Part shown: positions 1-32,300 of the stretch, piece after piece | How positions within the stretch are numbered: the first letter of the stretch is position 1 | Layout of the letters: every line of letters starts with the position of its first letter | Assembly (NCBI GenBank): GCA_900128565.1 | Contig: LT635953.1 | Location: 1 to 33,906 of the forward strand | DNA length: 33,906 nt | Direction: 5' to 3' | From: Stramenopiles sp. TOSAG23-6 | Lineage: Eukaryota | Notes under the pieces: generated by a model | Databases searched by the model: none | What the model saw: the letters and a program-made list of their open reading frames with translations, nothing else | What the model was told of the DNA's origin: nothing | Made by a program: the position numbers and the translations under genes

Positions 1-458
1 CATCTCTCTCGATCATTGCCCCAGTTACATATTGCTCCAATTTTGCCACCTTTTCCAGAAATGCTTCAAGAGTTTGCTTTATTCGGCACTAAAGGAGGTG
101 CAAATCATTTTGATTCTAAAATACGAACAATTCGTCCATTACCCATTAAATATCTTGCTTCCTCTGCAGAAGATCGTATGAACCAATTATTTGGTATTAA
201 AAAGAAATGGTCACTTGAAGAACTTCGACCTTTTATTAAAGATTTAACATGTACATTTTCATCATGAGTTTCAAATTGTTTTTTTTTCATAGAAAATTTT
301 GTACGTAACGAATTTTATAAAAAAAAAAAAAAATATTTTTTCACAATACACGTGGCGAAAATGATCTAACGGAGGGAAAACTTTTGTTGAAGTTTTGTCG
401 AAGTAGTACGTCAATTATTGACGGGAAAACAATTCGCTTATTTAATAAAAGATTTTGA
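1..458 (+). CDS. DSCC1: DCC1/DSCC1 (Ctf18-RFC subunit), 3' part; exons <1-250 and 352-458
   Basis: LASSAEDRMNQLFGIKKKWSLEELRPFIKDL resembles the DCC1 C-terminus (LP..ERF..LF..REKW..EDI.PYI.DL). Removing 251-351 continues as CGENDLTEGKLLLKFCRSSTSIIDGKTIRLFNKRF*, matching the 'LL.K..R.S' end of DCC1. Confidence 0.85.
251..351 (+). mobile_element. Introner-like intron copy 1 (GT...AC, 101 nt)
   Basis: Starts GTACAT, has internal AAATTTTGTACGTAAC and ends AAATATTTTTTCACAATACAC. Removal restores the DCC1 frame. Exact register is ambiguous by a few nt. Confidence 0.8.
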
Positions 459-2864: not shown

Positions 2865-4603
2865 ATGTCTTCTTTGTTTGTTATATTTTACGTGTACGTT
2901 TTACTTTTCAGTGGTTGGACAAATTCTTGGAAAGTTGCCTCCGAAGCCGAAAGAAGCTCTTTTTTAGCAGAATCTAATATTATGCAACGATTAAAAATTT
3001 GCGAAAGCGAAGGAATATATCCTATTTCATTGAGTATTCCAGCGGAATTTATTGTTTCTGAAGATCATGTTGACCTGGCATCTTTTTCTAGTCGCACACT
3101 ATTGTCAGAGATCTCACCAGTTGGATATGGAAAGATGATGGGTGATGCCAAAAGGTGGACTTTTTCGCCCACAAAAGAAGGAGAAACAGAATATCATTCA
3201 ACATACAGTAAATCTTTATTTGCTCTCACGATGAAGAAAGGTGGTTGGGACTGTTTATGTCTTCAAAATTGAATTCAAATTTATTTTGTTTGTACCAAAT
3301 TTCGTACCTAACGAATTTGAAATTTCAAGTTTTTGAATATTTTTTCACTCTACATTTACGCCACTATGAAATAATTGCAGCAGGCACAGTTCCTATATTC
3401 GTCGGTATTGAAGACGCCCCACCAGGTGTTTTATCTCTTGTACCTCGTGATTTATTTGTACGTGCTCGAAAGTTAACTTTATGGAATGATCAATCTAATT
3501 CTGGGTCACTTCCAATACTTGACTTTAGTGGCAATGATCAAAATTCAGAAACTCAAAAATACACTTCTGAATATTTAAATCTGCGAAAAGATTTTCTAAA
3601 AGTAGCACGACAAAAACTCACAACATTGTTTTCTGCTCAACGTTTACTGTCTATAATGGGATTTGATATCAATAATGAAAGTAAAAATAAAAAAATTTGC
3701 GCGGACAAACCACGAATAAATGAAAGTAAAAATAAAAAAATTTGCGCGGACAAACCACGAATACTATTTCTCACAGGTCGAGTTCAAGACCAGAATTATA
3801 TTCGGGAGCTCATGTACGTTTTCATTATGAATTTCAAATTTATTTTTTTTCATACGAAATTTCGTACCTAACAATTTGTTTTGACCAATTTCGAATGTCT
3901 ATTTTTTTTACAATACATATTTCATGGTTTGCGGAGCTTACTAGATGGAGAAAGTAGTCAAGATAAAATCAATCAAAATTCGTCGGAATCGCATACAAAT
4001 AATAGTGTACATGTCACTGATTTTCCAAAACTATCATTTATGTATGCTGAGTTAAACAGTGATGACTATTCGAAATCATCTGATAAAAGTTACGAATATG
4101 AAACAATTCATTTAAATAAAACTCGCGTGAAAAGACAAAGTCTATACGGATGGGGTTTTACTTACTCACATTTATTACCTGATTTGACAGTGAATAGATC
4201 TCCAAGGACTATTGAGAAGAATATTCGTAATATGGAGTATGATCTTGTAATCTATAGCCGCATGGATGGGATGTCATATAATCCGTTATCTCTCCGTATG
4301 TCGGATGGCACACTGTGGAGAGATGATAATAAAGGTGAGAAAGCAGCTGATGTTATGGGATATCCAGAAGATGTTGGGGAAAAACCATCGTGGGAGTATC
4401 CACCTTTTTGGCCCCTTGTACGGCAATATTATGCAGATCCATTTCCAAAAGGAGAGAAAAAAGTAGCATTTCTATTTGGAAGTGATTTATACGAACTTGA
4501 TGATGCAATGAAAATGGCTACACGATGGTCACAATTTGGCACAGTTTTTTTTCGCGAACTTGTTGATTGTCCAGAGGAAGTTCTCCAACGTTTCGAAAAA
4601 TAA
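2865..4603 (+). CDS. Putative glycosyltransferase-like protein with N-terminal signal/anchor; exons 2865-3254, 3356-3813, 3919-4603
   Basis: Hydrophobic N-terminus. Three ORFs join after removing two family introns to give YPISLSIP...SLFALTMKKGGWDCLRHYEIIAAGTVPIF...YIRELIFHGLRSLL. I recognise the KKGGWDCLRHYEI motif from uncharacterised GT-like proteins; the function is inferred. Confidence 0.7.
3255..3355 (+). mobile_element. Introner-like intron copy 2 (apparent TT...AT, 101 nt)
   Basis: Starts TTATGT (family GTATGT with G>T), has internal GTACCAAATTTCGTACCTAAC and ends TTGAATATTTTTTCACTCTACAT. Removal gives WDC|LRHYE. Confidence 0.75.
3674..3763 (+). repeat. Perfect 45-bp tandem duplication (NESKNKKICADKPRI x2)
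   Basis: Two identical 45-nt units in frame. Confidence 0.95.
3814..3918 (+). mobile_element. Introner-like intron copy 3 (GT...AT, 105 nt)
   Basis: GTACGT...TACGAAATTTCGTACCTAAC...CAATACAT. Contains an in-frame TAA and no AG. Removal gives RELIFHGLR. Confidence 0.82.
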
Positions 4604-6862: not shown

Positions 6863-9145
6863 ATGCGGAAAGTCCCCACAAAAAGAGATTCAATTGCAGA
6901 TAAGCAAGCAAGACTGCACACAAAGCGCGAAAAAGATAGAATAGACAAAATGCAATTCAGTAGAACTCTAAAGAAAGTGAAAATGCCGCAATTCGATGCA
7001 CCCAGAATATCAAGGAAATCAATACAGACTCATGATATAACTAATGCTAGTTTGAAAAGAGCGACACAAAAATCTAAGCAGGGATCAATAAAAATTCTTC
7101 GAAAGAAGAAAAGGCTTACTTCTCGGGTAGAGAGACCATTAAAAAAAATGGAGAAAAATAAACACAACAATTCCCATTTATTGTGGTCAGAATTTATGGA
7201 TTATGGCACGCGCAATTTGTTCTACATTCACAACAATACTGGGGAATCGAGCTGGGAAGCACCCAAAGGCTGGTATCGGACAAAGTCAAATTGTTCACTT
7301 ATTCCTTTGGATGATCTTAAGGATAAAAATTTTCCTATTAAAAATTGTACGTCAGCAAGAAATAGAGTTAAACCAAAGAAAAAACCAATATTGGTAACTA
7401 TTTCACCAAATAGAAAGAAAACCATGCGGCGATTTTATCCTGTGATATCAAAACCCACAAGAAAATCTTCGAACAGAAATGTTCACAATAGGGCTAAGAC
7501 ACATGGGAAGCAATCAACAGTAGGAACTTATAGAAAATATCGCTCACAAATTGTCTCCTACAGTAATGATCAGGGTCAGACTATCAAAGAATTTAATGGC
7601 CCGTCGAAGTCATTTTCTCAGATAAAAGCGTCAAAAGAAAAGGTGGCAAAATTGGAGCAATATGTAACTGGGGCAATGATCGAGAGAGATGAAGTAAAAA
7701 ACAATCTCAATAAAGTGAGTTTACTTTCTGCTGCACACTCTCAAGAGCTTGAAGATATTCGTAAGCCAAATTCAAAACATAATTTGTCACCCAATGCGAA
7801 TAATAGAAATAAGTTTGCAATAACAAAATCACTAGGGCATCAGAATGAATATATGCTTACTTTACTTAGTAAATCGGAGGCCACTAAAGATGATTTGAAG
7901 ACCAACATAAATATACTTCGCCGAGAAGCAAACATTTATAAATCTGCACAAGCACGGCTTAGAGATGGAGTTAATGTAAGTAAGTCAAGAGTTGCCGAGA
8001 GTAATATGAGAACAAATGAGTACTATAGATCCATAAAAGACGCGACAGATACATACCTTGAACAAAAATCACATTATATAGCTGAATGTAAAAATGTTCA
8101 AGACAAGCTATTAAAACTTCAACAACAAGCAAATAAGCTTACATTTCAAAACTCAGATGACATGGAAAATCTTAAAAACTGGGACAGTATTTCTGAAAGT
8201 TTTCAATCTGAAGTCTCAAAGAAATTTCTCGATGAAAATGTAGATAGATCAAAAAAAAAAGATTCAGAGCATAAATTCCACAAGCCACTGAGTAGCCGCA
8301 ACAAGATGCAGCATATTGCCCAATCGGAGTCATATTACAATAAACAGTGGACTGAACTATCTGCATTAACAGATGTTCAAAATATTAGTGATTTTGTGAA
8401 CATATGTATTAAATTTGAAAAAGAAAAGAAACGCAAGTTAGATAGAGTAAGCATTTATCTTGAAAACACACAGAAGATTAGACAACAACAACAAAGAATA
8501 AAGAACGAAATCATAAATATAAAATCTCGAATAACAGCAATTACAAATAATGGTAGTAAACAAGAAAGCTTAAGGGCATTTATGTCAGCCAAAGCATTCC
8601 AAGATAAAGCAGAGCAAGACGAAAAGAACATTTTGAAGAAAGAAAAGATTGTAGTTGATGCGATAATGAATGCAACTCAGTCACTATATCAATTATTGAG
8701 CAGTTCGCAAGTCTACCTTCACACAGATGTTGAGAGTATATCTGATTCTGTTGAAATTGTATCTACAAATACAAATGTAAAATCAAGAGTGAAATTATTA
8801 TTGAAAAACTTTTGTGTAATTGAAAGTATATTGAATCATATCCTAGAACCTTATATAATTTTCGAGGAGAACCAGGGTTGTATACCAAATAGAGCAAACT
8901 TTAATGTTGATGCCGAACGGAAAAAGCTTAACTCAATATTTTCAGACGTATTTAAGAAAGAAGATTGCTGGGTATCTAAAGTGTCTAAAATAATTGCTTC
9001 GAAAAGGGTTGCAAGTTTTGATACTGCTTCAAAAAACTCAAAAAGTAAACATTTAAGAACGAAAATAGAGGATACAACTTTACCAATTTTACACCATGAA
9101 GAGTTGTTACAATCAATGATAGGACGAAAACAGTATCTTCTGTAA
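6863..9145 (+). CDS. WW-domain coiled-coil protein, weakly ODAD1/CCDC114-like
   Basis: 760 aa. WW domain: WSEFMDYGTRNLFYIHNNTGESSWEAP. YNKQWTELSALTDVQNISDFVNICIKFE resembles the ODAD1-type motif. Confidence 0.55.
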   Translation: MRKVPTKRDSIADKQARLHTKREKDRIDKMQFSRTLKKVKMPQFDAPRISRKSIQTHDITNASLKRATQKSKQGSIKILRKKKRLTSRVERPLKKMEKNKHNNSHLLWSEFMDYGTRNLFYIHNNTGESSWEAPKGWYRTKSNCSLIPLDDLKDKNFPIKNCTSARNRVKPKKKPILVTISPNRKKTMRRFYPVISKPTRKSSNRNVHNRAKTHGKQSTVGTYRKYRSQIVSYSNDQGQTIKEFNGPSKSFSQIKASKEKVAKLEQYVTGAMIERDEVKNNLNKVSLLSAAHSQELEDIRKPNSKHNLSPNANNRNKFAITKSLGHQNEYMLTLLSKSEATKDDLKTNINILRREANIYKSAQARLRDGVNVSKSRVAESNMRTNEYYRSIKDATDTYLEQKSHYIAECKNVQDKLLKLQQQANKLTFQNSDDMENLKNWDSISESFQSEVSKKFLDENVDRSKKKDSEHKFHKPLSSRNKMQHIAQSESYYNKQWTELSALTDVQNISDFVNICIKFEKEKKRKLDRVSIYLENTQKIRQQQQRIKNEIINIKSRITAITNNGSKQESLRAFMSAKAFQDKAEQDEKNILKKEKIVVDAIMNATQSLYQLLSSSQVYLHTDVESISDSVEIVSTNTNVKSRVKLLLKNFCVIESILNHILEPYIIFEENQGCIPNRANFNVDAERKKLNSIFSDVFKKEDCWVSKVSKIIASKRVASFDTASKNSKSKHLRTKIEDTTLPILHHEELLQSMIGRKQYLL

Positions 9146-12087: not shown

Positions 12088-12655
12088 ATGAAGCTAATCA
12101 TCGGCATTTTTGCTCTTATGGTCGCGTCTTGTTCGGCTTCTAACGCTGAAGGTCAAGCGTTCCTTGAAGAAAATGGGAAAAAGGAGGATGTAGTAGTGCT
12201 ACCATCGGGACTGCAGTATAAAATCTTAAAGTCAGGACCGTCACCAGGAAAATCACCAACAGCAGATTCTCCTTGCTCTTGCCACTACAAGGGCACCTTG
12301 ATTGACGGCACCAAGTTTGACTCCTCATACGACCGTGGACGCCCAACTACGTTTGCCCCAAACCAAGTCGTAAAAGGCTGGACGGAAGCTATGCAGGTAA
12401 GTTTCTTTGTCCTGTCGCTTTGAACTCTACCAATATTATGAGTACCTTTATATATTCTAACACATCACTTATTCTTTCGTATATTTATTTTAACAGCTCA
12501 TGAAAGAAGGCGATACTTGGGAACTCTACTTGCCTTCCGAGTTGGCTTATGGAGATCGCGGAGCCGGAGCCACCATAAAAGCTGGAGACGTTCTTGTGTT
12601 TACTCTTGAAATGATAGAAGTCAAGGGTGGTTCTAAGATGCTTACAGACAAGTGA
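12088..12655 (+). CDS. FKBP-type peptidyl-prolyl isomerase with signal peptide; exons 12088-12396 and 12497-12655
   Basis: Signal peptide MKLIIGIFALMVASCSA. Motifs LPSGLQYKIL, HYKGTLIDGTKFDSSYDRG, VVKGWTEAMQ|LMKEGDTWELYLPSELAYG. Canonical GTAAGT...TAACAG intron 12397-12496 with TTCTAAC. Confidence 0.95.
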
Positions 12656-16258: not shown

Positions 16259-19200
16259 ATGCCGTGTCAGACTACTTTGAATCATCAAAAAGGTGAAGAA
16301 ATTATATTCCCGTTTCCTTTCCCACCCTATGATATCCAGAAATCGCTGATGTCTAGTATATTTAAAAGACTTCAAACCGGTGGTGTTGGTATCTTTGAGA
16401 GTCCGACGGGTACAGGGAAGAGTTTAAGTATAATCAATAGCGCACTACTTTGGCTTAAATGTTACGCACCTCCAAACTATGACGTTCTTGCGGGAAATAG
16501 GAAATTTGAGCAAAATGGAAAAGCTATTGCAAAAGTTCCAGCTGTAGCTTCGTCTTTCAATTCGTCTGACGATGAAGAACCAGATTGGGCTACTCAATAT
16601 GAGTCCGCAGCAGTGAGATCTCTGCGAGAGCGTCATGAATTTGCAGAAAAACGATGGCAGGCTCGAATCTTGGCACTACTTCAAAATGCAGAAGGCTCCG
16701 ACAACTTAAACCGTAAACGTGGCCGTTGGTCTAGAGGCCACCACAAGGGTTCACGAGCAAGCACAAAATCTAAATTATCTAAAAAAGTACTTTCTGACAA
16801 CAAACAAGAGAATTCAACGATATGCGATGATGAAAATGACGATGAATTTCTTGTGGATGCATATGATAGCGATGATGGCGTTAAAGAGGCATGGTGTACC
16901 AGCAGTAGTAGTAGTGATGCGGATGGTTTTAATTCTGATGATGACGACACACCTCTTAGTGTTCGGAAAGTAATTTACTGTACTCGAACACATTCTCAGC
17001 TCTCACAGTTCATGAGTGAAGTTAGAGAAACGACATTTGGAAATCCCGTTGGTAAATCTCGTACAAAAGAAACATCATCGATGATAGAACATTCCGGTAC
17101 CAAAAGGAAACTCTCTTCTACTGATAGTTCTATTGAGCCATTATATGTGAGATGTATGTTTTATTTTTTTTAATTTATATTTGTTTTTCGTACGAAATTT
17201 TGTACCTAACGAATTTTATTTGAAATTTTTTTTGAAATATTTTTCCAAAATATATGTATTGCATTAGGATCTAGAAAGAATCTTTGTATAAACGAAAGTG
17301 TTAAAAAACGGGGAGGGACAAGCATAAACGAATCGTGTCTCGAAATGCAAAGAAATGCAAAATCCATTAGTAAAACATCTGATAAGAATATAAAGAAGGG
17401 AAGTTGTCCTCATTTTGATAAAGGTCCACAAAAATTGTTTGGAGACCATGCGACTGTCAAAGTTCGTGATATTGAAGATTTAGCAGCACTTGGTAAGAAT
17501 ATGGGATCTTGTCCATATTACGGAGCTCGAAAAGCTGTACCTTTAGCAGAATTGGTCACAGTTCCTTATAATATGATTCTTCATAGTGGAACACGAAATC
17601 GATTACAGTTGCCATTGAAGGGAAATATTGTAATATTTGACGAAGCACATAATATTATTGATGCAATTAATAATGCTTACAGTTGTTATGTAACTCATGA
17701 AATTCTAATTGCAGCTCATAGAGAACTTTCACAGTATCTTCAACGATATAAAAGTCGACTGAAAGGTCGAAATATTATTTTTATCAATCAATTATTATAC
17801 GTTTTACGGTCCATTGCCAAATTCATTGACAAGTCTAAAATATCTCCAATTTCAAATGTGAATGGGAAAAGTGTCAATGAAACATCCAATAATAATGTGT
17901 TTTCTCTTAGTGAGTTTGTAACAAAAGCTGGTATTGATCATATAAATATGTTCAAACTTGATAAATATATTGAACGTAGTAAAATAGGACGTAAAGTTCA
18001 AGGTTTTACAGAAAAGTATGTGAAACCTTTTGAAGTAGAGTCTGATGATAACCATAACCCTAATATCCAAACGCAAAAGAAATCTTCAGGCTCAGCACTA
18101 ATGCAGGTCAGGGAATTTCTCATGGCACTTACAACAGCAAATGGTGACGCAAGAGTTCTTATTACAATTGGAAGTGTAAAGATTGTAATGCTCAATGCCT
18201 CAGTACATTTCAGAGAAATTGTAAATGAAGCCCATGTACGTTTTTCAAATTGAATTTTGAGTTTTTTTTTTCATACGAAATTTTGTACCTAACAAGTTTT
18301 TGAAAAAAAAAATTGAAATATTTTTATACAATATATGCGGTGCTTCTTTTGGGCGGTACCATGCAGCCAATTCAAGATATCGTGAATCAATTATTTTGGC
18401 ATGTAGAATCTGATAAAATTACTACACTTTCTTGTAATCATGTTGTTCCTGATTCAAATATAATAGCTCTAACTGTTGATAAAGGACCTATGGGGAAATC
18501 TCTTAAGTTTACTTATAAAATACGAGAGCAAGTAGAGACACAAATTGAACTTGGCCGTCTGATTGCGAACTTATGTATATGTATGTTTTATTTTTTTTCA
18601 AATTCTAAATTTTTTTTCGTACGAAATTTTGTACCTAACAAATTTTAGGTTTTTTTTTTGAAATATTTTTCCAAAATTCATTAGTTCCTGGTGGAGTTGT
18701 CGTATTTTTACCATCTTTTCAATATTCAAAAACACTTCAAACAACATGGAACAAATCTGGTGGTATATTAAATAGAATTGCAAAAAAAAAGAAAATATTT
18801 TGGGAACCACGTAATGCTATTGATGTGGAATCCACATTATTGGATTATTCATTCGCTATAAAGAAATATAATATTTCAGAAAAGTGTAATCAAAATATAT
18901 CGCCCTTGGGCACTCAAAATCAGAATACTCAACAAGAAAAACAAAATAAAAATCTTACTGGTGCAATATTATTCAGTATTGTTGGTGCTAAAATGTCTGA
19001 AGGAATTGATTTTAAGGATGACTTGGCAAGATGTGTAATTATGGTAGGTTTACCTTTTCCGCCTCCTAATAGTCCTGAACTGAGAGAAAGGATGATCTGG
19101 TTAGATGAACAATCTAATAAAAGGACAATGGAGTTACAGCCACAAGATTCAAGAATTTGCTCAAAAGATATAAAAAATAANAACAAAAATAGCGCTGGTC

Positions 19201-19427
19201 AGGATTATTACGAAAATATATGTATGCGGGCAGTGAATCAGTCTATAGGTCGCGCAATTAGACATAAAAATGATTTTGCTTCAATTGTGTTGGTTGATAG
19301 TCGATACAAAGAAGAAAGAATAAAACGAAAACTTCCAGCATGGATACAAAGGCGTACGAAAGTAGCCGATTCATATGGACAAGTAGCAAAATGTTTAGGA
19401 AAGTTCTATCGATCACATAAAGTGTGA
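16259..19427 (+). CDS. DDX11: DDX11/CHL1 Fe-S DNA helicase; exons 16259-17153, 17256-18235, 18337-18580, 18682-19427
   Basis: [90 protein letters not shown]. The motifs are contiguous only after three family introns are removed. Start codon is uncertain. Confidence 0.93.
17154..17255 (+). mobile_element. Introner-like intron copy 4 (GT...AT, 102 nt)
   Basis: GTATGT...TTCGTACGAAATTTTGTACCTAAC...GAAATATTTTTCCAAAATATAT, with no internal AG. Removal gives [13 protein letters not shown]. Confidence 0.87.
18236..18336 (+). mobile_element. Introner-like intron copy 5 (GT...AT, 101 nt)
   Basis: GTACGT...TACGAAATTTTGTACCTAAC...GAAATATTTTTATACAATATAT. Removal gives [14 protein letters not shown]. Confidence 0.87.
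18581..18681 (+). mobile_element. Introner-like intron copy 6 (GT...AT, 101 nt)
   Basis: GTATGT...TTCGTACGAAATTTTGTACCTAAC...GAAATATTTTTCCAAAATTCAT. Removal gives NLCILVPGG. An in-frame AG lies 3 nt further downstream. Confidence 0.8.
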
Positions 19428-29353: not shown

Positions 29354-32300
29354 ATGGCTACCGTTGGCTCTTTACAGAAGAGTACACCCAGTTCTATACC
29401 TGGTGCATATCCTCTAAATGCTTCTGAACATTTGAAGGAGCTAGTATCCCCTCATATAGAATCGTTCAACTATGTGATTCATGATGGTCTTGAAGCAGCT
29501 ATTAATAGCCTTGCAACTTATCCAACTGTTATTACAATGGATAATGCAAAGCAAAAGAAGAAGAAATCAAACATAAATACAAAGAAACACAATACCCGAG
29601 CAGATTCGTCTAGCTCTTCAGGATCATCTAGTTCTGATGATAGTGATTCGGAGTCTTCAGAGGAAGAACGTGACGGAGATGTTCTCCAGTTGTGGATTGA
29701 AGACGCTGAGATTGGCTACCCCACTAGGTCAGATGATTCCCTTGACTCTCGATGTTTTCCAGCAGAATGTAGACAACTTGGTACAACGTATGATGCGCCA
29801 CTTTGGTTGACTATTTGTCGACGTGTTAATAATGGTACAGTTATTCGTATGCAACAAAAAGTTGGAGATATTCCAATCATGGTTCGTTCTGACCGTTGTC
29901 ACCTGAATGGTTTGTCTCCAAAAGAACTTGTACGTCGTCATGAGGATGCGGATGAATTTGGTGGATATTTTGTATGTAATGGTATCGAACGTTGTATCCG
30001 TATGTTACAAATCCCACGGAGAAATATGGTACAATCTCTTGATCGTCCGTCTTTTGCAAATCGTGGTCCGAAGTATTCCTCTAAAGCAACTTCAATTCGA
30101 TCTGTGACTGCAGATCAATCTGGTACTACTGTAACTTGTCACTACCAAACTGATGGTAATGTTATGGTTAGATTTCTTGTGCGTAAACAAGAGTTTTTTG
30201 TTCCAGTAATTCTTTTAATGCGAGCACTAAAAGAAGTAACTGATCGTGAGATTTACGATCGTCTCGTTGGTACGGGGAATAATTCATCAACTGATAAGGT
30301 AAATAAGAGTTCTTCATTTGTTGCTGATCATGTAGAAGTTATTCTTAGAGATGGGCGTACATATGGTGATATGTATTCTCGTACACAGTGTTTAGCTTAC
30401 CTTGGTGCTCGATTCCGTGTTTTGTTGCAACAAGGACTATCGTGTGAATTAATGTCTGATGCACAGGTTGGCCGTGCTTTGTTGCATCGTCATATTTTTG
30501 TGCATCTTAGTCAGTCATCTAAGATTGTGAACGATAATGCGGATAGTGCAAAGTTTAGTCTTTTGTTATTTATGCTTCGCAAACTTTTCTCTTTTGTTGA
30601 AGGTACGAGTGTCGCTGATAATTCTGATGCTCTTTCATCACACGAAATCCTCACTTCTGGTCATTTGTACATTAAAATTCTTAAAGAAAAAATCGAAGAC
30701 TTCATGCTTAATGTAAAACAATTTATTCTTGCTGATCTACGCCGTGATAGCTCTCGTGTGTCATTCAACAGTGAAACATACATTAAACGATCGTTAGACC
30801 GCCAAAAAGATTTAGGTAAAGAATTATACTATTTTCTTGCTACTGGTAATTTGAGATCTACGTCAGGTCTTGATCTGATGCAGAATTCCGGATTTACTAT
30901 TATAGCAGAGAAATTGAATTGGTTGCGGTATATTGCTCATTTTCGATCAGTACGTTTTATTTTTTTTCAATTTTTTTATCTAATTTTTTTTCGTACGACA
31001 TTTCGTACCTAACAAATTTTAGTTTTTTTTTTGAAATATTTTTCCAAAATACATGTACATCGAGGTAGATTTTTTGCGGAAATGAAAACAACAACGGTAC
31101 GTAAACTGTTGCCGGAATCGTGGGGATTTTTATGCTGTGTTCATACTCCTGATGGTTCCCCATGTGGACTTCTTAGTCATTTATGTGCCGCTGCAAGGTA
31201 AGTTTTTTTGAACGAAACAAATTCTTTCTTTTTTGTTTTTCTTTCTTTGTTTTCTGTAACATTCTATTGTTTTTTGTATAACTAGTGAAATGATTACAAA
31301 TTATTGACATTTTTGTCAATGTGCCGCTCCAGACTTAAAGAAGCTTCAACGGGCGTCTTGTAGACAGCAGGCAAGCACCCCACCATTTTCTTGCCGGATG
31401 ATCACTATAATACAATCAATCAATTAGAATTTTCAATCAATATATTTTAATTATCAATGTCACAATCAATATCACAACCAACTCATTGTATACATTTTGT
31501 TTTATTAATTATACACAATAGAATTGTTCCACAAGCTCAGGATACTTCCAGACTTCCAAGTGTATTGGTTGCATTAGGAATGATTCCAGATGTTGAAGAT
31601 ACGAGATTGCTTCTACCTCGTTCTCAATCTGTTGATGGTGAAGGCAAGGGATATCTTCCAGTATTGCTTGATGGGCGCGTCATTGGTGCTGTTGCCGTTG
31701 GACGTGCAACTAAAATGGTGTCTGAATTACGTAGAATTAAAGTAACAGAGTTAGCATCTCGTGTAGCTGCTGGCAAGTGTAACAGTAGTTACCTTACACC
31801 AGTTTCAGAATGCTCAGATGTGAAATTAATCGGTAAAAATCGAGGCGTTCCTGTGGATCTAGAATGTGCATTAGTACTACCAATGTCTGCTGAAGGAGGT
31901 GGACCATTTCCTGGACTATATCTTGCAGCTGAAGCTGCCCGATTGGTTCGTCCAGTTCACCATCTTGGTGCAAATGCTCCCGAGTGGATAGGTACATTTG
32001 AGCAGATGTTTATGTCAATTGGTTGTCAGGATGCAGAAGCTGAAGACGCTACTCATCGTGAAATCGATCCTATGAATATTCTCTCTGTAGTTGCTAGTCT
32101 AACACCTTTTTCGGATATGAACCAAAGTCCGCGTAATATGTACCAGTGTCAGATGGGTAAACAAACAATGGGGACACCATGTCACAATTGGATTAATCGT
32201 CGTGATAATAAAATGTATCGCATTCAACATGCACAAGCGCCTATTGTTCAAAATAAAGCACAGGTTCACTATCGTATTGATGACCACAGTAATGGATGTA

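Follow-up and report, generated by a model that had tools for sequence, protein, structure and literature searches.

Seven short introns on one contig

The window (the whole stretch of DNA analysed here, 33,906 nucleotides of contig LT635953.1 from Stramenopiles sp. TOSAG23-6) carries seven copies of a short repeated intron, all on the forward strand, three of which interrupt a DDX11/Chl1-like helicase gene (16259..19427, + strand). Once copies 4 to 6 are removed, this gene encodes 954 amino acids with no internal stop and, compared with 12 homologues, with no query gap at any of the three junctions. Copy 4 (17154..17255, +), a 102-nt GT...AT intron, is intron 1 of the helicase gene; its removal gives a gapless alignment to the closest homologue, with the same 14-residue stretch in both. 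Copies 5 (18236..18336, +) and 6 (18581..18681, +) are GT...AT introns of 101 nt each. For copy 5 the homologue test used an equivalent register slid by one base, and copy 6 has an in-frame AG 3 nt downstream of its end, the use of which would lose one residue that is kept in homologues. Copy 7 (30950..31054, +), a 105-nt GT...AT intron, lies in the gene for the second-largest subunit of RNA polymerase I, where its removal yields HFRSVHRG and solved homologues have HFRMVHR. The same gene holds a second, longer intron downstream of copy 7 (31198-31451), with the donor CAAG/GTAAGT. The remaining copies are copy 1 (251..351, +; 101 nt, GT...AC), copy 2 (3255..3355, +; 101 nt) and copy 3 (3814..3918, +; 105 nt, GT...AT). 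Copy 2 lacks a GT donor when read in the usual register, where the donor model failed, and admits two possible registers, TT...AT (3255-3355), giving WDCLRHYE, or GT...AC (3253-3353), giving WDYLRHYE; a homologue search with the surrounding gene found none. At the start of the contig, a perfect 55-nt inverted repeat links window positions 1-55 and 7637-7691.

The organization of the family is conveniently described on copy 4. Its upstream exon ends in AT (17152..17153, +), which can pair with nucleotides 9-10 of U1 snRNA and forms the left copy of a 2-nt target duplication; it is followed by the donor GTATGTTTT (17154..17162, +), whose GTAT doubles as the left terminus of the element proposed below. 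An imperfect 16-nt palindrome, GTACGAAATTTTGTAC (17190..17205, +), marks the putative dyad axis of this element and is weakly conserved in its 5' arm and strongly in its 3' arm. It is overlapped by a 10-nt palindrome, TTCGTACGAA (17187..17196, +), and by the extended branch-site motif GTACCTAAC (17202..17210, +), with A17209 as the putative branch point. Towards the end lies the TTGAAATATTT block (17232..17242, +), in which TTGAA is the mirror image of a TTCAA that many copies carry 16-19 nt in from their left end, and the terminal box TTTTTCCAAAATAT together with the duplicated AT (17240..17255, +) fixes the 3' end.

Much of what the original prediction described in these seven copies holds. 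The 10-nt palindrome is present in copies 4 and 6, and within the window in these only; CTAAC abuts the 16-nt palindrome directly, with the exception of copy 1, where the branch variant is GTAAC; and AGs lie between branch motif and end in copies 2, 5, 6 and 7. The distances from branch A to the 3' end recur exactly (43, 44, 47, 46, 44, 43 and 42 nt in copies 1 to 7) in a recheck in which six copies were placed by model and copy 2 by its 3' end. The predicted block near the end is found as AAATATTT at 17235-17242 in copy 4 and begins 20-21 nt before the end in 153 of the 209 copies sampled genome-wide (see below), and it is optional, 29 of the 209 having no AAATATTT match. The proposed consensus, a perfect 16-bp palindrome, proved wrong: it is missing from all seven window copies, and in the genome-wide sample just 9 of 209 copies carry it, compared with 59 that carry the G-U form GTACGAAATTTTGTAC. 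As for the variant said to keep its pairing through G-U, TTTTGTAC is indeed carried by four of the seven window copies, and copy 5 loses the outer pair as well.

The window copies are members of a very large family. In the assembly (21.1 Mb in 6,236 contigs, part duplicated), a 20-nt core with up to 2 mismatches has 10,264 matches, a count inflated by duplicated contigs, against 2 for the reversed control; within the window, the motif has 6 matches with up to 3 mismatches where 0.23 are expected. Near-duplicate or inverted parts are seen in contigs C13/C14 and C2, as expected of an amplified-genome assembly, and inflate copy counts. The sample studied comprises about 0.85 Mb including overlaps, in 128 records, and about 2% of the family. 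Models of the donor and of the end box were trained on core-anchored copies (306 cores, with both ends in 198, then in 166) and then run blind to the core, giving 214 hits and none in locally shuffled DNA. CCTAAC is matched at five or six of its six positions in 209 of these hits, the remaining five being dropped; the set of 209 is biased to good ends, and its donor and end-box conservation is inflated by motif-based picking. In this set 148 copies are GT-AT, 192 have G at +1, 167 end in AT and 200 end in something other than AG; about one sampled copy in eight starts other than with GT. The AG acceptor of U2-type introns is thus the exception, with 9 of 209 copies ending in AG and AG ends giving no restoration of the frame. 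Ordinary GT-AG introns without the core exist and look rare (for instance window 12397-12496, and others at loci L046 and L068).

The cut follows the terminal box

According to the original prediction, the 3' site is set by structure, a ruler or a dedicated binding factor rather than by AG scanning. Frame tests show that the cut follows the terminal box (consensus T5-6-CA(C/A)AATAY, with a fixed box-to-cut distance) and neither an AG nor a fixed branch distance. Among the 144 of 209 introns with clean coding flanks, the box-defined end restores the frame in 134, compared with 50 for the first AG past the branch, 46 for the first AG at least 10 nt past it and 47 for the next AG at or after the box; this test reads length modulo 3 only, and the box end failed in 10 of the 144. 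Where an intron contains an internal AG, the box end fits the frame in 24 of 26 cases and the AG in 6 of 26. Copies that do not start with GT also restore the frame, in 15 of 16 cases overall (AT-AT 6/7, GA-AT 4/4, AT-AC 3/3, TT-AT 2/2). The prediction is borne out in that AGs are not scanned (134 against 46-50 of 144) and that an end signal exists; its ruler and its hairpin, considered below, do not survive.

A ruler counting a fixed distance from branch A to the cut had been suggested by the near-fixed 42-47 nt of the window, in which all seven copies indeed fall (probability 0.0003 for seven random copies). A sharp floor at 32 nt, with 2 of 209 copies below it and at least one of these with a misplaced end, also speaks for some counting, as do three GT-AG candidates outside the family, drawn from a noisy search in which most of 32 candidates look false, that have CTAAY 35, 35 and 36 nt before their AG and so match, post hoc, the short class of the family. 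Genome-wide, however, the 42-47-nt range is a local effect, holding 67 of 209 copies against 85 in 32-37 nt. Distances run from 32 to 66 nt with modes at 34.6 +/- 1.3 and about 42-43 nt (BIC 1105 for two modes, at 34.6 and 42.3, versus 1161 for one), 75 copies lying at 33-36 nt, 30 at 37-40 and 77 at 41-45, and they are spread evenly over all three phases while box-defined ends keep the frame. A fixed ruler is already contradicted by this spread, and we hold it to be most improbable; a minimum-distance rule alone survives, in which the 32-nt floor would reflect the space that must separate branch site and box. Introns of one length class are clustered by locus (60% same-class pairs versus 50%, p 0.004 with the window loci excluded); within a locus the right spacer is slightly more alike, and subfamily is not clustered.

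The snRNAs offer a partial answer as to what reads these signals. Genes for U5, U2, U1 and U4 form one cluster on contig C1146 (9-645, with a duplicate on C6122), and U6 lies on C3740. The four clustered genes share one strand and a head-to-tail order, with gaps of 2-23 nt between them, an arrangement that suggests a single transcription unit. U2 (GUAGUA), the U5 loop and U6 (ACAGAGA box) are standard. The 5' end of the only U1 found, AAACGUACAUG, differs from the Rfam consensus AUACUUACCUG at three positions, which face donor +7 (T in 205/209), donor +4 (T in 126 and C in 74, G pairing with both) and exon -1 (T in 186); all three changes match the AT/GTAYGTTT donor, and over 11 positions the mean pairing is 10.0 with the genome's own U1 versus 7.3 with the Rfam consensus. 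By hand count, the GT-AG intron at 12397-12496 keeps 9 of 11 pairs with the variant U1. This U1 scores 54 bits in Rfam, under the 69.5-bit cut-off, and also departs from the consensus in its stem I and stem II loops. In a search for a second U1, the standard 5' 12-mer with at most one mismatch had 58 matches versus 68 for the control, and none of the five of these scanned with Rfam was a U1; the assembly may have missed a second U1.

The expected complementarity between snRNAs and the conserved blocks is therefore found for U1 and the donor and not for the core and the end box, where the longest helix with any snRNA reaches 6-8 nt including G-U pairs, against 11 for U1 and the donor in a comparison made without a shuffle control. 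As no snRNA helix with the box is comparable to that of U1 with the donor, the box is more likely read by a protein, for which a U2AF-like factor seems the best candidate. U2AF35 was found neither among 17 zf-CCCH matches nor by motif in this incomplete assembly, and U2AF65-like profile matches lie below the cut-off only. The METTL16 family (PF05971) was likewise not found in the incomplete genome; the available text of PMC10581693 reports that METTL16 loss in yeasts accompanies a preference for U at +4, a pattern with which the absence of PF05971 is only compatible.

An intron register of AT...AC, two bases to the left, would make these minor-spliceosome-like introns and, with AT at both ends, would give the same mRNA in 123 of 198 copies. 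Against it, the complementarity to U1 puts the cut before GT, and in copy 7 the slid register replaces the S of HFRSVHRG by Y, a weak point as homologues have M. U12-type introns are marked by an RTATCC donor and a short branch-to-end distance; the family has a GTAYGTTTT donor and distances of at least 32 nt, and a U12-type donor is absent. The AT...AC register can be given hardly any credence. Splicing, branch position and exact register are here deduced from sequence; three low-cover RNA runs (of which X1 and X2 are one sample) contain no join across copies 4-7 or any other intron, their contigs being 177-383 nt long with 0-3 differences and scattered cover, and more than 1,200 short contigs per run pile on repeat copies.

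The palindrome and a probable fold-back element

A hairpin formed by the palindrome in the RNA could display the branch site or place the acceptor. It is present in the predicted folds of copies 4, 6 and 7 (copy 7, like copy 3, having been folded one base off), its stem has a probability above 0.5 in 75 of 203 copies folded, and C/T variation facing G preserves the pair. Hairpins made of a copy's own arms are slightly more stable than chimeric ones (-2.09 versus -1.99 kcal/mol, reached by 0 of 100 shuffles), and pairs are slightly in excess in three of six stem columns (p 0.007-0.027); shared arm age, register shifts or weak selection could account for both. Yet the stem probability is below 0.1 in 104 of the 203 copies, all six pairs are kept in just 88 of 209, and the covariation named as a check in the original prediction does not show: of 279 changes in the 5' arm, 50 leave a pair where 55 would do so with no preference, and the stem pairs rank between 88 and 2576 of 3828 by mutual information. 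Per-site mismatch to the consensus is 0.22 in the 5' arm, 0.19 in an optional GAAATATTT block and 0.03 in the 3' arm, which puts decay in the 5' arm at about 8 times the rate of the 3' arm. Judging by its sequence, U2 is able to pair with CTAAC and also, if one C bulges out, with the preceding GTA, which would explain the conservation of the 3' arm alone; a stem would hide the very GTAC proposed to pair with U2. A selected hairpin is very unlikely on these grounds. A helix joining the two ends of the intron was also considered and rejected, its probability exceeding 0.5 in 34 of 203 copies with no covariation between +4 and -6.

At the DNA level the symmetry extends over the whole unit. Both arms start with GTAT when read inward, giving GTAT...ATAC ends; the perfect terminal inverted repeat is of 4 nt only and a decayed symmetry runs on over the arms, whose alignment to each other beats shuffled sequence in 182 of 209 copies and reversed sequence in 170. 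TTCAA occurs in 100 left arms, mostly at offset 16-19, and in 101 reverse-complemented right arms, 86 of them at offset 17 (n = 209). With the last two bases set aside, arm-length modes are 44-47 and 52-54 nt on the left and 43-46 and 51-54 nt on the right. The best reading of the palindrome is as the symmetry axis of a decayed MITE-like introner of fold-back type.

A site-by-site match of exon and intron ends is the test of target duplication described in the accessible part of PMC9860276. Exon -2 equals intron -2 in 164 of 209 copies versus 135.2 in shuffled pairs, exon -1 equals intron -1 in 181 versus 170.5, and the match is absent at -3 and -4. Intron ends other than AT repeat the exon end in 21 of 42 cases; where the exon end is not AT, the intron nonetheless ends in AT in 39 of 67. 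As to the flanks, 72 of 209 copies have C at exon -3 and 117 have G at exon +1.

The alternative offered by the original prediction, a binding site for a transposase or recombinase, fares better than the RNA hairpin in that a DNA-level feature of the element fits, the palindrome lying at the centre of symmetry of the entire unit. A transposase with fitting ends did not emerge: the search, limited to PF13359 (DDE_Tnp_4), returned two elements, neither of which fits. The transposon at C2432:503-3609 was rejected as a partner on account of its own GGCC ends and TAA/TTA flanks, the intron family being represented within it by a truncated remnant only. It is a complete element of PIF/Harbinger type, with a 508-aa Plant_tran transposase, a convergent 350-aa frame and 14-nt inverted ends; the remnant lies between its two genes, and the same element occurs on C2433, C2439 and C2440. 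The second, on C4153 (L128:389-1651 and 1913-2063), has no matching ends; it consists of a 420-aa DDE_Tnp_4 frame followed by long imperfect hairpins. Helitrons are characterized by a hairpin near the 3' end and the lack of a target duplication; a Helitron was rejected here, the palindrome being central and a duplication present.

A DNA-binding protein, whether transposase or chromatin factor, might still be maintaining the palindrome along with both arm lengths, in which case helical phasing would lie behind the step of about 9 nt. The same step is seen in both arms (with modes at 56 and 65 from donor to branch, and at 34.6 and 42-43 from branch to end), the steps of the two arms are weakly associated (odds ratio 2.2, p 0.011), the length class clusters by locus as described above where subfamily does not, and cores are found without intron ends too. 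The DNA helical turn, however, is 10.5 bp and the step of 8-9 nt is shorter; the decay of the 5' arm speaks against a symmetric site under selection, and slippage between short internal repeats could yield the same step. Maintenance by a DNA-binding protein is accordingly unlikely. Cores outside recognizable introns, without donor or end box, were noted at L045, L026 and L047. Some copies at L043 and L047 (contigs C18 and C27) have tandem duplicated cores, and several others carry CCCTAA telomere-type repeats just 3' of the donor, one of them inverted.

It might also be argued that the shared motifs are genome-wide signals of a remodelled spliceosome, on which introns of several origins have converged, with matching ends brought about by selection. 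The copies are well diverged (no identical copies among the 120 of 209 tested, with a median nearest-neighbour alignment score of 0.68 per base), their long spacers vary widely in sequence, U1 matches the donor, and introns end in AT despite a non-AT exon end in the 39 of 67 cases mentioned. Convergence would not account for the dyad symmetry of the whole unit, the mirrored TTCAA/TTGAA or a central palindrome that has no splicing rationale; the family comprises two subfamilies whose 5' and 3' markers are linked across 100 nt, which shows common descent, the 2-nt end match is site-specific, and ordinary GT-AG introns without the core exist. Convergence from several origins is therefore improbable. 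We put at about 0.68 the probability that the family consists of U2-type spliceosomal introns descended from a single old fold-back DNA transposon of the non-autonomous kind, that is, an introner.

As reconstructed from these sequences, a fold-back element with GTAT...ATAC ends, mirrored TTCAA/TTGAA and a 16-nt palindrome between two arms of about 45 (or about 54) nt entered NT sites, mostly AT, and duplicated the two bases. The element brought its own donor and branch site, both known as motifs, and the intron runs from its first base through the duplicated pair; since the right copy of the target duplication supplies the last two intron bases, removal restores the exon exactly, in agreement with the frame tests. 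U1 matches both donor and duplication, including the exon T at -1, and a putative box-binding factor would position the acceptor no less than 32 nt downstream of the branch. Drift is seen in the palindrome's 5' arm, which would be an inherited relic, once used at the DNA level and not needed as an RNA hairpin.

Precedents and significance

A literature search, with supplements (which possibly list the organism) outside its scope, found no published account of this intron system, although each of its parts has a precedent in introners, non-AG introns, coevolved U1 and symmetrical proliferating introns. The comparisons that follow reflect the available text of each source. The introners of Chrysochromulina (PMC9860276) are likewise a repeated intron family with an element-borne donor and a 3' end derived from the target duplication, so that mRNA length is unchanged; their duplication is of 4 nt rather than 2, and a non-AG acceptor or an snRNA change is not described in that text. 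By comparison, the present family is non-AG in 200 of 209 copies, dyad-symmetric, endowed with an internal branch site and well diverged between copies. The symmetrical sister (stw)introns of Hypoxylaceae (PMC8469720) have also proliferated and have inverted arms of 45-55 nt, but show no flanking duplication and canonical U2 ends, in contrast to the 2-nt duplication and non-AG ends seen here. In terms of target, ISL2EU transposons (PMC4482050) share a 2-nt AT duplication; their target is A/AT/T, whereas here exon -3 is C in 72/209, exon +1 is G in 117/209 and other NT duplications occur.

As for the splicing machinery, most introns of Fritillaria borealis and F. pellucida (PMC13326754) also lack AG, commonly have a 3' AT and use the U2 spliceosome, with YAY at the intron end and often also before the donor. 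Fritillaria differs in having AG as main donors, unchanged U1 5' ends, a duplicated U2AF and altered m6A; here the G at +1 is kept in 192 of 209 copies and the U1 sequence itself is changed. In Entamoeba and Mastigamoeba (bioRxiv 10.1101/2022.06.08.495308), the U1 5' end is altered, as here, to full pairing with an atypical donor; there, the lineage is intron-poor and the introns are not one mobile family, while here the U1 change includes the base facing exon -1, within the target duplication. The same preprint, in its accessible part, reports no U1 change in Thecamonas, five Mamiellales and 69 yeasts. Compared with these classes, the present family behaves as a U2 intron and as an introner, yet it fails the AG criterion of the former and its transposase partner was not found.

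Thousands of introns of about 100 bases, mostly AT-ended, thus seem to come from one element, and the splicing machine seems to have adapted to the invader. This raises the question as to whether a single invasion rewired the major spliceosome, with U1 recoded to recognize the element's end along with the duplicated bases, a box-reading acceptor factor in place, AG recognition of the U2AF35 type gone and no further need for the first intron base to pair with the last, this final point because AT-AT, GA-AT, TT-AT and AT-AC introns restore the frame (15 of 16). We regard so extensive a rewiring as a tentative and somewhat doubtful proposal; were it true, a new acceptor complex would have left its footprints in the 32-nt floor and in the step of about 9 nt. 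The system joins three things known apart, namely transposon-made introns, AG-less splicing and a U1 coevolved with its donor, and the element, the target duplication and the U1 changes align base by base; it is through this alignment that one can test, within a single genome, if mobile introns are able to remodel the core spliceosome. The system also constitutes a natural system for 3' splice-site choice without AG and, in practical terms, a genome in which gene prediction based on GT-AG fails at about one intron per 2 kb.

Outside this genome, two matches from a viral scan were set aside as chance, since they sit in a phage-like coding frame with neither donor nor palindrome. A separate record of the metagenome collection contains one true copy of the family, in which the palindrome is perfect, the ends are GT...AT and the distance is 40 nt.
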